64,000 bases of DNA from assembly GCF_003018255.1 (NCBI RefSeq), contig NZ_CP027440.1, one strand, 5' to 3'. This DNA is from Escherichia coli. Its GTDB lineage: Bacteria > Pseudomonadota > Gammaproteobacteria > Enterobacterales > Enterobacteriaceae. Numbering within the stretch: the first letter of the stretch is position 1; each line of letters begins with the position of its first letter. Position numbers and translations under genes: made by a program. The notes beneath the pieces are model-generated. The model did not search any database. It saw only the letters and a list, made by a program, of their open reading frames with translations, and was not told the DNA's origin. This document shows, piece by piece, positions 4,294 through 62,719 of the stretch.

Positions 4294-4365
4294 GTAGGTC
4301 GGATAAGACGCGGCAGCGTCGCATCCGACTTTGAAGGATAAGACGAGTCAACATCGCATTCGGCA
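4294..4365. repeat. REP-like palindromic unit(s) downstream of ubiF
   Basis: gtaggtcggataagacgcggcagcgtcgcatccgac resembles the REP consensus, followed by a partial second unit. Confidence 0.5.
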
Positions 4366-4416: not shown

Positions 4417-4491
4417 TGGCTGGGGTACGAGGATTCGAACCTCGGAATGCCGGAATCAGAATCCGGTGCCTTACCGCTTGGCGATACCCCA
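4417..4491 (-). tRNA. glnX: tRNA-Gln (anticodon CUG)
   Basis: 75-nt reverse complement matches the E. coli tRNA-Gln sequence ending CCA; anticodon loop UUCUGAU; ends verified against overlapping ORF codons. Confidence 0.95.
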
Positions 4492-4528
4492 ACTGGGTGC
4501 ACTTACAAGGTAAGCGTCTTGAATAAAT

Positions 4529-4603
4529 TGGCTGGGGTACGAGGATTCGAACCTCGGAATGCCGGAATCAGAATCCGGTGCCTTACCGCTTGGCGATACC
4601 CCA
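4529..4603 (-). tRNA. glnV: tRNA-Gln (anticodon CUG)
   Basis: Identical 75-nt copy of the CUG isoacceptor. Confidence 0.95.
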
Positions 4604-4651
4604 ACAAATTGGTTTTTGAATTTGCCGAACATATTCGACACATTCAGAATT

Positions 4652-4728
4652 TGGTGGCTACGACGGGATTCGAACCTGTGACCCCATCATTATGAGTGAT
4701 GTGCTCTAACCAACTGAGCTACGTAGCC
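4652..4728 (-). tRNA. metU: Elongator tRNA-Met (CAU)
   Basis: 77-nt reverse complement GGCTACGTAGCTCAGTTGGTTAGAGCACATCACTCATAATGATGGGGTCACAGGTTCGAATCCCGTCGTAGCCACCA. Confidence 0.95.
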
Positions 4729-4743
4729 AGATTGTTTCTTCGA

Positions 4744-4818
4744 TGGCTGGGGTACCTGGATTCGAACCAGGGAATGCCGGTATCAAAAACCGGTGCCTTA
4801 CCGCTTGGCGATACCCCA
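4744..4818 (-). tRNA. glnW: tRNA-Gln (anticodon UUG)
   Basis: 75-nt tRNA-Gln with anticodon loop UUUUGAU. Confidence 0.95.
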
Positions 4819-4852
4819 ATAACCGGGCGGTGAACCGCTTATTCGAAGAATA

Positions 4853-4927
4853 TGGCTGGGGTACCTGGATTCGAACCAGGGAATGCCGGTATCAAAAACC
4901 GGTGCCTTACCGCTTGGCGATACCCCA
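4853..4927 (-). tRNA. glnU: tRNA-Gln (anticodon UUG)
   Basis: Second copy of the UUG isoacceptor. Confidence 0.95.
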
Positions 4928-4950
4928 TCCGTACAACGCTTTCTGGTGAA

Positions 4951-5035
4951 TGGTGCGGGAGGCGAGACTTGAACTCGCACACCTTGCGGCGCCAGAACCT
5001 AAATCTGGTGCGTCTACCAATTTCGCCACTCCCGC
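4951..5035 (-). tRNA. leuW: tRNA-Leu (anticodon UAG), long variable arm
   Basis: 85-nt reverse complement GCGGGAGTGGCGAAATTGGTAGACGCACCAGATTTAGGTTCTGG...CACCA. Confidence 0.93.
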
Positions 5036-5043
5036 AAAAAAGA

Positions 5044-5120
5044 TGGTGGCTACGACGGGATTCGAACCTGTGACCCCATCATTATGAGTGATGTGCTCTA
5101 ACCAACTGAGCTACGTAGCC
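5044..5120 (-). tRNA. metT: Elongator tRNA-Met (CAU)
   Basis: 77-nt copy of the metU sequence; first gene of the operon. Confidence 0.95.
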
Positions 5121-58900: not shown

Positions 58901-59617
58901 ATGAGACTCGAGTTTTCAATTTATCGCTATAACCCGGATGTTGATGATGCTCCGCGTATGCAGGATTACACCCTGGAAGCGGAAGAAGGTCGTGACATGA
59001 TGCTGCTGGATGCGCTTATCCAGCTGAAAGAGAAAGATCCCAGCCTGTCGTTCCGTCGCTCCTGCCGTGAAGGTGTGTGCGGTTCCGACGGTCTGAACAT
59101 GAACGGCAAGAATGGTCTGGCCTGTATTACCCCGATTTCGGCACTCAACCAGCCGGGCAAGAAGATTGTGATTCGCCCGCTGCCAGGTTTACCGGTGATC
59201 CGCGATTTGGTGGTAGACATGGGACAATTCTATGCGCAATATGAGAAAATTAAGCCTTACCTGTTGAATAATGGACAAAATCCGCCAGCTCGCGAGCATT
59301 TACAGATGCCAGAGCAGCGCGAAAAACTCGACGGGTTGTATGAATGTATTCTCTGCGCATGTTGTTCAACCTCTTGTCCGTCTTTCTGGTGGAATCCCGA
59401 TAAGTTTATCGGCCCGGCAGGCTTGTTAGCGGCATATCGTTTCCTGATCGATAGCCGTGATACCGAGACTGACAGCCGCCTCGACGGTTTGAGCGATGCA
59501 TTCAGTGTATTCCGCTGTCACAGCATCATGAACTGCGTCAGTGTATGTCCGAAGGGGCTGAACCCGACGCGCGCCATCGGCCATATCAAGTCGATGTTGT
59601 TGCAACGTAATGCGTAA
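58901..59617 (+). CDS. sdhB: Succinate dehydrogenase iron-sulfur subunit
   Basis: 238-aa ORF with Cys clusters CREGVCGSDGLNMNG and CILCACCSTSCP. Confidence 0.96.
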   Translation: MRLEFSIYRYNPDVDDAPRMQDYTLEAEEGRDMMLLDALIQLKEKDPSLSFRRSCREGVCGSDGLNMNGKNGLACITPISALNQPGKKIVIRPLPGLPVIRDLVVDMGQFYAQYEKIKPYLLNNGQNPPAREHLQMPEQREKLDGLYECILCACCSTSCPSFWWNPDKFIGPAGLLAAYRFLIDSRDTETDSRLDGLSDAFSVFRCHSIMNCVSVCPKGLNPTRAIGHIKSMLLQRNA

Positions 59618-59620
59618 ACC

Positions 59621-59738
59621 GTAGGCCTGAGAAGACGCGCAAGCGTCGCATCAGGCAACCAGTGCCGGATGCGGCGTGAACGCCTTATCCGGCCTACAAG
59701 TCATTACCCGTAGGCCTGATAAGCGCAGCGCATCAGGC
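59621..59738. repeat. Cluster of three REP units (BIME) in the sdhB-sucA spacer
   Basis: gtaggcctgagaagacgcgcaagcgtcgcatcaggc / gccggatgcggcgtgaacgccttatccggcctac / gtaggcctgataagcgcagcgcatcaggc, alternating orientation. Confidence 0.75.
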
Positions 59739-59760
59739 GTAACAAAGAAATGCAGGAAAT

Positions 59761-59799
59761 CTTTAAAAACTGCCCCTGACACTAAGACAGTTTTTAAAG
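59761..59799 (+). other. Perfect 12-bp-stem hairpin in the sdhB-sucA spacer
   Basis: CTTTAAAAACTG-cccctgacactaaga-CAGTTTTTAAAG; two further inverted repeats follow before the sucA start codon. Confidence 0.5.
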
Positions 59800-59917
59800 G
59801 TTCCTTCGCGAGCCACTACGTAGACAAGAGCTCGCAAGTGAACCCCGGCACGCACATCACTGTGCGTGGTAGTATCCACGGCGAAGTAAGCATAAAAAAG
59901 ATGCTTAAGGGATCACG

Positions 59918-62719
59918 ATGCAGAACAGCGCTTTGAAAGCCTGGTTGGACTCTTCTTACCTCTCTGGCGCAAACCAGAGCTGGATAGAACAGCTCTATGA
60001 AGACTTCTTAACCGATCCTGACTCGGTTGACGCTAACTGGCGTTCGACGTTCCAGCAGTTACCTGGTACGGGAGTCAAACCGGATCAATTCCACTCTCAA
60101 ACGCGTGAATATTTCCGCCGCCTGGCGAAAGACGCTTCACGTTACTCTTCAACGATCTCCGACCCTGACACCAATGTGAAGCAGGTTAAAGTCCTGCAGC
60201 TCATTAACGCATACCGCTTCCGTGGTCACCAGCATGCGAATCTCGATCCGCTGGGACTGTGGCAGCAAGATAAAGTGGCCGATCTGGATCCGTCTTTCCA
60301 CGATCTGACCGAAGCAGACTTCCAGGAGACCTTCAACGTCGGTTCATTTGCCAGCGGCAAAGAAACCATGAAACTCGGCGAGCTGCTGGAAGCCCTCAAG
60401 CAAACCTACTGCGGCCCGATTGGTGCCGAGTATATGCACATTACCAGCACTGAAGAAAAACGCTGGATCCAACAGCGTATCGAGTCTGGTCGCGCGACTT
60501 TCAATAGCGAAGAGAAAAAACGCTTCTTAAGCGAACTGACCGCCGCTGAAGGCCTTGAACGTTACCTCGGCGCAAAATTCCCTGGCGCAAAACGCTTCTC
60601 GCTGGAAGGTGGTGACGCGTTAATCCCGATGCTTAAAGAGATGATCCGCCACGCTGGCAACAGCGGCACCCGCGAAGTGGTTCTCGGGATGGCGCACCGT
60701 GGTCGTCTGAACGTGCTGGTGAACGTGCTGGGTAAAAAACCGCAAGACTTGTTCGACGAGTTTGCCGGTAAACATAAAGAACACCTCGGCACGGGCGACG
60801 TGAAATACCACATGGGCTTCTCGTCTGACTTCCAGACCGATGGCGGCCTGGTGCACCTGGCGCTGGCGTTTAACCCGTCTCACCTTGAGATTGTAAGCCC
60901 GGTCGTTATCGGTTCTGTTCGTGCCCGTCTGGACAGACTTGATGAGCCGAGCAGCAACAAAGTGCTGCCAATCACCATTCATGGTGACGCCGCAGTGACC
61001 GGGCAGGGCGTGGTTCAGGAAACCCTGAACATGTCGAAAGCGCGTGGTTATGAAGTTGGCGGTACGGTACGTATCGTTATCAACAACCAGGTTGGCTTCA
61101 CCACCTCTAACCCGCTGGATGCCCGTTCGACGCCGTACTGTACTGATATCGGCAAGATGGTACAGGCACCGATTTTCCACGTTAATGCGGATGATCCGGA
61201 AGCCGTTGCTTTTGTGACCCGTCTGGCGCTCGATTTCCGTAACACCTTTAAACGTGATGTCTTCATCGACCTGGTGTGCTACCGCCGTCACGGCCACAAC
61301 GAAGCCGACGAGCCGAGCGCAACCCAGCCGCTGATGTATCAGAAAATCAAAAAACATCCGACGCCGCGCAAAATCTATGCTGACAAGCTGGAGCAGGAAA
61401 AAGTCGCGACGCTGGAAGATGCCACCGAGATGGTTAACCTGTACCGCGATGCGCTGGATGCTGGCGATTGCGTTGTAGCAGAGTGGCGTCCGATGAACAT
61501 GCACTCTTTCACCTGGTCGCCGTACCTCAACCACGAATGGGACGAAGAGTACCCGAACAAAGTTGAGATGAAGCGCCTGCAGGAACTGGCTAAACGCATC
61601 AGCACGGTGCCGGAAGCAGTTGAAATGCAGTCTCGCGTTGCCAAGATTTATGGCGATCGCCAGGCGATGGCTGCTGGTGAGAAACTGTTCGACTGGGGCG
61701 GCGCGGAAAACCTCGCTTACGCCACGCTGGTTGATGAAGGCATTCCGGTTCGCCTGTCGGGTGAAGACTCCGGTCGCGGTACCTTCTTCCACCGCCACGC
61801 GGTGATCCACAACCAGTCTAACGGTTCCACTTACACGCCGCTGCAACATATCCATAACGGTCAGGGCGCGTTCCGTGTCTGGGACTCCGTACTGTCAGAA
61901 GAAGCCGTGCTGGCGTTTGAATACGGTTATGCCACCGCAGAACCACGCACTCTGACCATCTGGGAAGCGCAGTTCGGTGACTTCGCCAACGGTGCGCAGG
62001 TGGTTATCGACCAGTTCATCTCCTCTGGCGAACAGAAATGGGGCCGGATGTGTGGCCTGGTGATGTTGCTGCCGCACGGTTACGAAGGGCAGGGGCCGGA
62101 GCACTCCTCCGCGCGTCTGGAACGTTATCTGCAACTTTGCGCTGAGCAAAACATGCAGGTGTGCGTACCTTCTACCCCGGCACAGGTTTACCACATGCTG
62201 CGTCGTCAGGCGTTGCGCGGGATGCGTCGTCCACTGGTCGTGATGTCGCCGAAATCCCTGCTGCGTCATCCGCTGGCGGTATCCAGCCTCGAAGAACTGG
62301 CGAACGGCACCTTCCTGCCAGCCATCGGTGAAATCGACGAGCTTGATCCGAAGGGCGTGAAGCGCGTAGTGATGTGTTCTGGTAAGGTTTATTACGACCT
62401 GCTGGAACAACGTCGTAAGAACAATCAACACGATGTCGCCATTGTGCGTATCGAGCAACTCTACCCGTTCCCGCATAAAGCGATGCAGGAAGTGTTGCAG
62501 CAGTTTGCTCACGTCAAGGATTTTGTCTGGTGCCAGGAAGAGCCGCTCAATCAGGGCGCATGGTACTGCAGCCAGCATCATTTCCGTGAAGTGATTCCGT
62601 TTGGGGCTTCTCTGCGTTATGCAGGCCGCCCGGCCTCCGCCTCTCCGGCGGTAGGGTATATGTCCGTTCACCAGAAACAGCAACAAGATCTGGTTAATGA
62701 CGCGCTGAACGTCGAATAA
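59918..62719 (+). CDS. sucA: 2-oxoglutarate dehydrogenase E1 component
   Basis: 933-aa [51 protein letters not shown]... Confidence 0.97.

Follow-up and report, generated by a model that had tools for sequence, protein, structure and literature searches.

The spacer between sdhB and sucA, which lies inside the sdhCDAB-sucABCD transcript of Escherichia coli, can be set beside several described systems. RNase III-processed spacers and leaders (pdhR-aceE, rpsO-pnp, and adhE) share with it a long imperfect untranslated duplex, as well as rnc-dependent RNA-seq coverage and a change at the protein level in rnc mutants. Unlike in these systems, the best duplex of the sdhB-sucA spacer is formed by mobile repeats that are absent in a third of strains, and its processing may therefore be strain specific. 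These repeats resemble REP/BIME elements in their consensus, extragenic position within a transcription unit, alternating orientation, many genomic copies, and an RNA 3' end just downstream; nothing essential sets them apart, although the cluster in the spacer is polymorphic in E. coli (0, 3, or 4 units), and the long linker with an IHF site found in some BIMEs was not noted between the sdhB-sucA REPs. A third parallel is provided by the target leaders of Hfq-dependent sRNAs (GlnZ on sucA, and Spot 42 on sdhC, with a distal sRNA site and an Hfq site proximal to the translation initiation region), which the spacer resembles in that a single-stranded stretch offers a 10-bp match to the seed and an A-rich element lies by the ribosome-binding site (RBS). 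For E. coli K-12, there is no difference from GlnZ-sucA, the spacer leader being the published target itself. Finally, Rfam holds a sucA RNA motif of Burkholderiales and a sucA-II motif of Pseudomonadales, which share with the E. coli spacer a conserved structured leader directly upstream of sucA and differ from it in that neither sequence nor structure matches and in that the E. coli leader consists of four hairpins and an sRNA site.

The spacer has its own literature. Cunningham and Guest (1998) are cited (PMC6393394, PMC9731577, PMC5371410, and PMC4161252) for three RNase III sites within it, placed upstream of the GlnZ site, and the citing papers also attribute to that work a weak internal suc promoter. 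An extra promoter and internal termination between sdhB and sucA are credited in PMC6393394 to Park et al. (1997) and Conway et al. (2014), and the latter authors describe for the operon an internal terminator with partial read-through and a secondary promoter. The spacer sets the balance between succinate dehydrogenase and 2-oxoglutarate dehydrogenase/succinyl-CoA synthetase, all encoded on one 10-kb transcript, and ties the tricarboxylic acid (TCA) cycle to nitrogen status through GlnZ. These roles are established for K-12, and we add no new principle to them. What the present analysis adds is that about one in three E. coli genomes lacks the REP cluster bearing the textbook RNase III signal, that the structured element after sdhB is nearly universal (99% of 78 species) while free in sequence, that the four-hairpin leader is conserved by covariation yet lies outside the curated RNA families, and that the loop of the first hairpin (hairpin A) tolerates large inserts, including an ERIC-like repeat. 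Taken together, the spacer is very probably a composite post-transcriptional control region made of two modules: a BIME-like cluster of three alternating REPs (module 1, 59621-59741) and the conserved sucA leader with hairpins A to D (module 2, 59755-59917).

Identity and layout of the spacer

The window (the whole stretch of E. coli DNA analyzed, 64,000 nucleotides [nt]; all positions refer to it) contains the spacer at 59618-59917. These 300 nt lie between the sdhB stop codon (TAA, 59615-59617, plus strand) and the sucA ATG (59918-59920, plus strand), which is preceded by the Shine-Dalgarno (SD) sequence AAGGGA at 59907-59912. K-12 positions are obtained by adding 698788 to those of the window. 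A comparison of 59412-60112 with MG1655 (NC_000913.3, 758200-758900) revealed four base differences, of which a single one falls in the spacer (59631, G for T). RefSeq annotates no gene inside the spacer. Folding of the spacer RNA, which had been called for as a check on its density of inverted repeats, gave a structure better than that of shuffled sequences (z = -6.1 for the whole spacer), and in the RNA structure models all of the hairpin arms are predicted to be less than 7% unpaired.

The sequence-only reading of this DNA had described a three-unit REP cluster, a perfect 12-bp stem at 59761..59799, a GCGAGC/GCTCGC inverted repeat, and a further inverted repeat with a tcac loop placed immediately before the RBS. 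Three full-length matches to the REP consensus are indeed present at the positions given below, the 12-bp stem was found as described (hairpin A), and the second repeat lies at 59808-59813 and 59830-59835 (hairpin B). The tcac-loop repeat (hairpin C) also exists, at 59849-59868, but its position had been misjudged: it does not adjoin the RBS because the GlnZ target (59875-59884) and a fourth hairpin (59888-59906) intervene.

The REP cluster

We searched for REP units by using a variable-gap regular expression for the consensus GCC(G/T)GATGCG...(C/T)TTATC(A/C)GGCCTAC, a 35- to 40-nt imperfect palindrome. Unit 1 occupies 59621-59656 on the minus strand (GCCTGATGCGACGC...TTCTCAGGCCTAC), unit 2 occupies 59664-59697 on the plus strand (GCCGGATGCGGCG...CTTATCCGGCCTAC), and unit 3, a short form, occupies 59710-59738 on the minus strand (GCCTGATGCGCTGCGCTTATCAGGCCTAC); the orientation is thus -,+,- with linkers of 7 and 12 nt. 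Across the 64-kb window, only one further REP was recovered, at 4294-4329 on the minus strand, about 90 nt from the low-coordinate end of a cluster of seven tRNA genes (4420-5120, minus strand). A query with the spacer recovered a median of at least 38 matching places per E. coli genome, among the matches listed. The sdhB-sucA REPs are ordinary REP/BIME members.

The cluster folds at -60.3 kcal/mol (z = -6.2), and the predicted REP duplexes include 24-nt arms that are 75% complementary and 14-nt arms that are 93% complementary; as modeled, they would provide the approximately two helical turns of double-stranded RNA (dsRNA) expected of an RNase III substrate. The pair formed by REP1 and REP2 also matches the Rfam family naRNA4 (RF02564) with 82 bits on the minus strand (gathering threshold, 59.5), and on the plus strand it scores 47.1 bits, which is under that threshold. 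Because naRNA4 was itself built on a REP pair, any pair of this kind should match it. This bears on the proposal that the spacer encodes either a minus-strand, naRNA4-like small RNA, which the above-threshold score would favor, or a small protein, for which the ORF list offers an 86-codon GTG ORF (59676-59936). The ORF begins inside REP2, RefSeq places no gene at the site, any comparable REP pair would produce the same naRNA4 hit, and the Term-seq tables of Adams et al. (2021), queried by gene name, gave no minus-strand RNA end. We consider either kind of product exceedingly unlikely. The gain and loss of REPs and the 3-nt and 8-nt indels between E. coli alleles disrupt the reading frame of the 86-codon ORF, which was rejected as a coding sequence for this reason.

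RNA ends, RNase III processing, and the internal promoter

Published transcriptome data place two signals at the REP cluster. For Gordon et al. (2017), the sucA site, which they list as a known RNase III site, served as a positive control, and their Table 1 and supplement report an RNase III-dependent loss of plus-strand RNA-seq coverage at 59727 (K-12 758515), inside REP3, with 305 reads in the rnc mutant versus 0 to 1 in the wild type. This signal is a coverage ratio and not a mapped end, and it may stem from the decay of a fragment rather than from a cut. The main text of Altuvia (2018) makes no mention of sucA. In the Term-seq data of Adams et al. (2021), a plus-strand RNA 3' end lies at 59743 (K-12 758531), between GCGUAAC and AAAG, i.e., 5 nt past the REP3 match, which ends at 59738, and 2 nt past the extended REP3 stem, which ends at 59741; the flanking sequence printed for 758531 agrees with the window, and the end was seen in one of two conditions only. 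Both the mapped RNase III signal and the 59743 end thus fall at the REP cluster and not at hairpins A to C. A second plus-strand 3' end from the same data set, at 59919 (K-12 758707), coincides with the second base of the sucA AUG, was found in both growth conditions, and is not Rho dependent; the leader fragment ending there may be a decay or a regulatory product.

These data bear directly on the sequence-only reading, which had proposed control of mRNA processing or stability, or an internal promoter, that would decouple sdh from suc, with transcript ends or processing sites within 59600..59920. The published Term-seq 3' ends at 59743 and 59919 and the RNase III-dependent RNA-seq signal at 59727 all lie in that interval, the K-12 data on RNase III and 3' ends bear out the first proposal, and the K-12 work cited for a promoter in the spacer bears out the second. 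The processing and promoter reading is right, yet it had already been published.

The following course of events would account for these signals. The sense RNA of the cluster would form a long irregular duplex that stops 3' exonucleases or else makes transcription pause or terminate, and the sdhCDAB 3' end at 59743 would result. In K-12-type strains, the same duplex would serve as dsRNA for RNase III, parting the sdh mRNA from the suc mRNA; we infer that the REP duplex, and not hairpin A, is what RNase III cuts. At the protein level, SucA is specifically reduced in an rnc mutant and SucB is unaffected (Miyakoshi et al. 2022; Walling et al. 2022).

The 59743 end could instead arise by termination rather than by trimming or processing, were the hairpins after sdhB a true transcription terminator, in line with the position of the end just after REP3 and with the internal terminator with partial read-through of Conway et al. 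(2014). However, no spacer hairpin is followed by a U-run, and a scan for intrinsic terminators over 59300-60200 returned 0 sites. Moreover, REP-stabilized 3' ends classically come from exonuclease arrest. We regard a genuine terminator as unlikely, although the data at hand would fit either mechanism of end formation.

As for the internal promoter (Psuc), which would lie somewhere in the spacer, a standard sigma-70 scan (9/12 matches, 16- to 18-nt spacing) found no site there. The best promoter-like element in a lenient scan is an extended -10 sequence, TGgTAGTAT, at 59867-59875 on the plus strand, with a poor -35 region; judged from sequence, it is only a low-confidence candidate for the published Psuc.

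Hairpins of the sucA leader and the GlnZ target

Downstream of the REPs, four plus-strand hairpins were delineated. Hairpin A (59755-59804) has a perfect 12-bp core stem formed by CTTTAAAAACTG (59761-59772) and CAGTTTTTAAAG (59788-59799) around a 15-nt loop; it is extendable to 17 bp and has a z of -5.2. Hairpin B (59799-59844; energy z = -4.0 against shuffles) combines an outer helix of GGUUCCUU and AAGUGAACC with the inner GCGAGC/GCUCGC stem. The extensions of A and B are mutually exclusive because the extended arms share GGUUCC (59799-59804). Hairpin C (59849-59868; CACGCACA-UCAC-UGUGCGUG) is an 8-bp stem in which CACGCACA (59849-59856) pairs with TGTGCGTG (59861-59868); its energy is no better than chance (z = -0.5), yet it shows the strongest covariation across species (see below). 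Hairpin D (59888-59906; AAGCAU-AAAAAAG-AUGCUU), which is absent from the sequence-only reading, abuts the SD sequence AAGGGA and has an A-rich loop that is predicted to be 99% unpaired. It is probably part of the purine-rich, Hfq-related element beside the RBS (PMC9731577).

The single-stranded segment between hairpins C and D, UCCACGGCGA (59875-59884, plus strand), was recovered as the seed target of GlnZ by duplex prediction. GlnZ, an sRNA derived from the glnA 3' untranslated region (UTR), represses sucA by base pairing with its leader (Miyakoshi et al. 2022; Walling et al. 2022). According to these studies, repression requires a purine-rich 15-nt element beside the translation initiation region, and repression of SucA by GlnZ is abolished without RNase III. 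With the annotated glnZ, seed-region duplex prediction pairs GlnZ nt 1-21 best, and uniquely, with 59870-59891 (-20.5 kcal/mol); G12 and G15 of GlnZ oppose C59879 and C59876, in agreement with the published compensatory mutants, and the target core has a modeled probability of being unpaired of 0.72. In the arrangement that we propose, hairpins A to D would keep the GlnZ target and the A-rich loop by the RBS single stranded, and GlnZ together with Hfq, whose repression of sucA translation is experimentally established, would act through these exposed segments under nitrogen limitation. The hairpins may also shield the 5' end of the processed sucA mRNA; we infer that hairpins A to C would act as structural insulators or 5' stabilizers of that mRNA.

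We compared the locus with all 4,227 families of Rfam, using E ≤ 10 over the spacer and gathering thresholds over the whole window, and recovered only naRNA4 and unrelated tRNAs; the sucA and sucA-II motifs gave no match at E ≤ 10 in 59300-60300. The resemblance to these two motifs is thus an analogy only. By this search, the four-hairpin leader belongs to no curated RNA family, although the GlnZ papers depict parts of it.

Conservation and covariation across species

To place the spacer in a broader phyletic context, we collected 80 loci, one genome per species, from Enterobacteriaceae and Erwiniaceae, of which 78 have both gene ends. Among these 78 species, the spacer is 201 to 660 nt long, and the distance from the sdhB stop to hairpin A ranges from 35 to 454 nt, with no conserved sequence. 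This stretch nevertheless folds far better than shuffled versions in 99% of the 78 species (median z = -5.7), with REP cores in 25 of them. As a folding element is kept in the same place across species, structure after sdhB appears to be selected. The largest REP expansion at the site is that of Escherichia albertii (locus L007, positions 751-1300), whose 550-nt spacer has five REP cores.

Conservation of the leader sets in at hairpin A, whose 3' arm lies 109 to 132 nt from the ATG in all but three Citrobacter loci. These (L008, L027, and L052) carry an insertion of 86 to 130 nt between the GlnZ site and the RBS, so that the sRNA site comes to lie at -126 or -170; S. Typhimurium has a published insertion in this interval as well. 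The arms of hairpin A remain complementary even though they lie from about 15 to about 180 nt apart among species.

In 25 species (L028, L030, L041, L050, L070, and 20 others), an imperfect palindrome of about 123 nt interrupts hairpin A precisely at its loop (window equivalent, 59773-59787), and in other species inserts of about 35 to 80 nt give an arm separation of about 55 to 100 nt. The 123-nt element is dispersed, with a median of four detectable places per E. coli genome at 77 to 80% identity. It resembles ERIC/IRU repeats in this dispersal and in its core (...ATCCCCGGGAGCATAG...TATGTGACCGGGGTAAG...), and the window itself lacks it; from its copy number and the ERIC consensus, we take it to be ERIC-like.

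Covariation was assessed in an alignment of 74 distinct leaders from which the interior of the hairpin A loop was removed. Hairpins A to D are paired in 94.2% of cells, and 17 of 38 pairs (17-18) are changed on both sides, versus 6.5 ± 1.1 (to 7.5) in column shuffles, none of 500 of which reached the observed number; sliding the 3' partners by 1 to 3 columns left 2 to 7 such pairs. All five inner pairs of hairpin C covary (e.g., columns 104-126, UA29/UG25/CG16, and 97-130, CG42/GC8/GU6/UG5). The inner stem of hairpin B does so as well (51-77, GU36/GC24/AU14; 52-76, GC59/AU14), and its outer helix is 97% paired (45-85, UA47/UG20/CG4). The many G.U pairs imply that these hairpin structures belong to the sense-strand RNA. 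RNAalifold recovered A, B, C, and D without a supplied structure. Hairpin D and the SD region are nearly invariant across the leaders. Compensatory changes have thus preserved the pairing of hairpins A to D in Enterobacteriaceae and Erwiniaceae, as expected of a conserved cis-regulatory RNA structure.

Hairpin A departs from this pattern in some respects. Its covariation comes mostly from the Pantoea/Erwinia clade (CUUGCUAAGCG/CGCUUAGCAAG). An invariant sequence, AAAGGUUCC, makes up its 3' arm, which does not covary. It also holds C.A/A.C mismatches in 59 cells at three positions (59763-59797, 59766-59794, and 59771-59789; columns 9-37, 12-34, and 17-29), which would be G.U pairs if the minus strand were folded. 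Because these mismatches are tolerated and the 3' arm is invariant, something besides simple pairing constrains hairpin A.

Inverted repeats next to an internal promoter could also be operators, as the sequence-only reading had suggested; at the DNA level, they would then be bound by IHF, Nac, or other regulators of Psuc. Psuc is reportedly repressed by IHF, and the TGgTAGTAT candidate partly coincides with the 3' arm of hairpin C. Nac, too, is reported to bind the sucA promoter region (Miyakoshi et al. 2022; Walling et al. 2022). However, the arms of hairpin A stay complementary across the range of separations given above, the covariation of B and C proceeds via G.U pairs on the sense strand only (51-77 and 104-126), pointing to pairing in RNA, and the standard scan detected no sigma-70 consensus site. 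The operator suggestion is contradicted by the first two of these observations, and we judge it very improbable; the repeats are best understood as the hairpins of an RNA leader.

A possible anti-Shine-Dalgarno switch

The invariant GGUUCCUU (59799-59806) is complementary to the sucA SD sequence AAGGGA (59907-59912) and might act as an anti-SD; RNAalifold pairs the invariant UCCUU within it (59802-59806) with a Shine-Dalgarno AAGGA. GGUUCCUU can engage only one of three partners at a time: it may close the base of hairpin A, pair with AAGUGAACC in hairpin B, or pair with the sucA SD. In constrained folds, the predicted energies are -47.8 kcal/mol for the anti-SD form, -50.9 kcal/mol for the form with the outer helix of B, and -54.7 kcal/mol for the free minimum, i.e., they lie within about 7 kcal/mol of each other. 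Covariation neither favors nor opposes such a switch because all of the columns involved are invariant. We regard as quite doubtful the idea that hairpins A to D and GGUUCCUU form an uncurated translational switch conserved across Enterobacterales. If it were true, RNase III cleavage upstream or the binding of GlnZ/Hfq could choose the partner of GGUUCCUU, which would explain why SucA and not SucB falls in rnc mutants, and E. coli strains that have the REP cluster would differ from those that lack it in the control of sucA by RNase III.

Polymorphism within E. coli

At least three forms of the spacer occur within E. coli. The form of K-12 and the window has three REPs and 300 nt. A REP-less form of 200 nt, present in 1,764 of 5,426 complete E. 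coli genomes, has a small GC-rich hairpin, TTAAATGTTGATGCCGGGGAAATCCCCCGGCTATT (GCCGGGG-AAAU-CCCCGGC), in place of the REPs (e.g., L003:219-252 of E. coli LH13-b, against 59618-59751 of the window). The RNase III-dependent signal of K-12 maps inside the very cluster that REP-less strains lack. A four-REP form of 361 nt has two further differences: the inner stem of hairpin B reads GCGGAC/GUCCGC where the window has GCGAGC/GCUCGC, a change that is compensatory, and hairpin C has a loop of 12 rather than 4 nt; this B/C variant is carried by about 1,140 E. coli genomes. Beyond the REPs, the three forms are otherwise identical downstream. The hairpins are thus retained, and the REP cluster can be dispensed with or exchanged. 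Module 1 is an interchangeable part: other E. coli strains and other species have either a REP array (0, 3, 4, or more units) or a GC-rich hairpin of unrelated sequence in its place.

Such variability raises the question of whether the REPs are simply selfish mobile repeats in a tolerant spacer, with RNA effects that are incidental and were not selected for sdh/suc regulation. Their copy number of 0, 3, or 4 in E. coli, with none in a third of its genomes, and of five cores in E. albertii fits this proposal, as does the dispersal evident from the spacer query (a median of at least 38 places per genome, among the matches listed). Against it, a folding element is found at the site in 99% of the 78 species, whatever its sequence, REPs being one way of supplying it, and it is at the cluster that the 59743 end and the RNase III-dependent signal are both found. 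We consider purely selfish repeats a possible, if somewhat unlikely, account; it overlaps in part with the composite control region that we favor and, given the polymorphism, is partly right.

Hairpin B itself occurs in two old forms within E. coli, CGCGAGCC...GAGCUCGC and AGCGGACG...GUCCGCAAC (L002:201-597 of E. coli AVS0578; also L007, L009, L011, L014, L017, and L022). Both forms recur in other genera (E. albertii, Citrobacter, Salmonella arizonae, and Kluyvera), and their coexistence suggests recombination or an old polymorphism of the leader.
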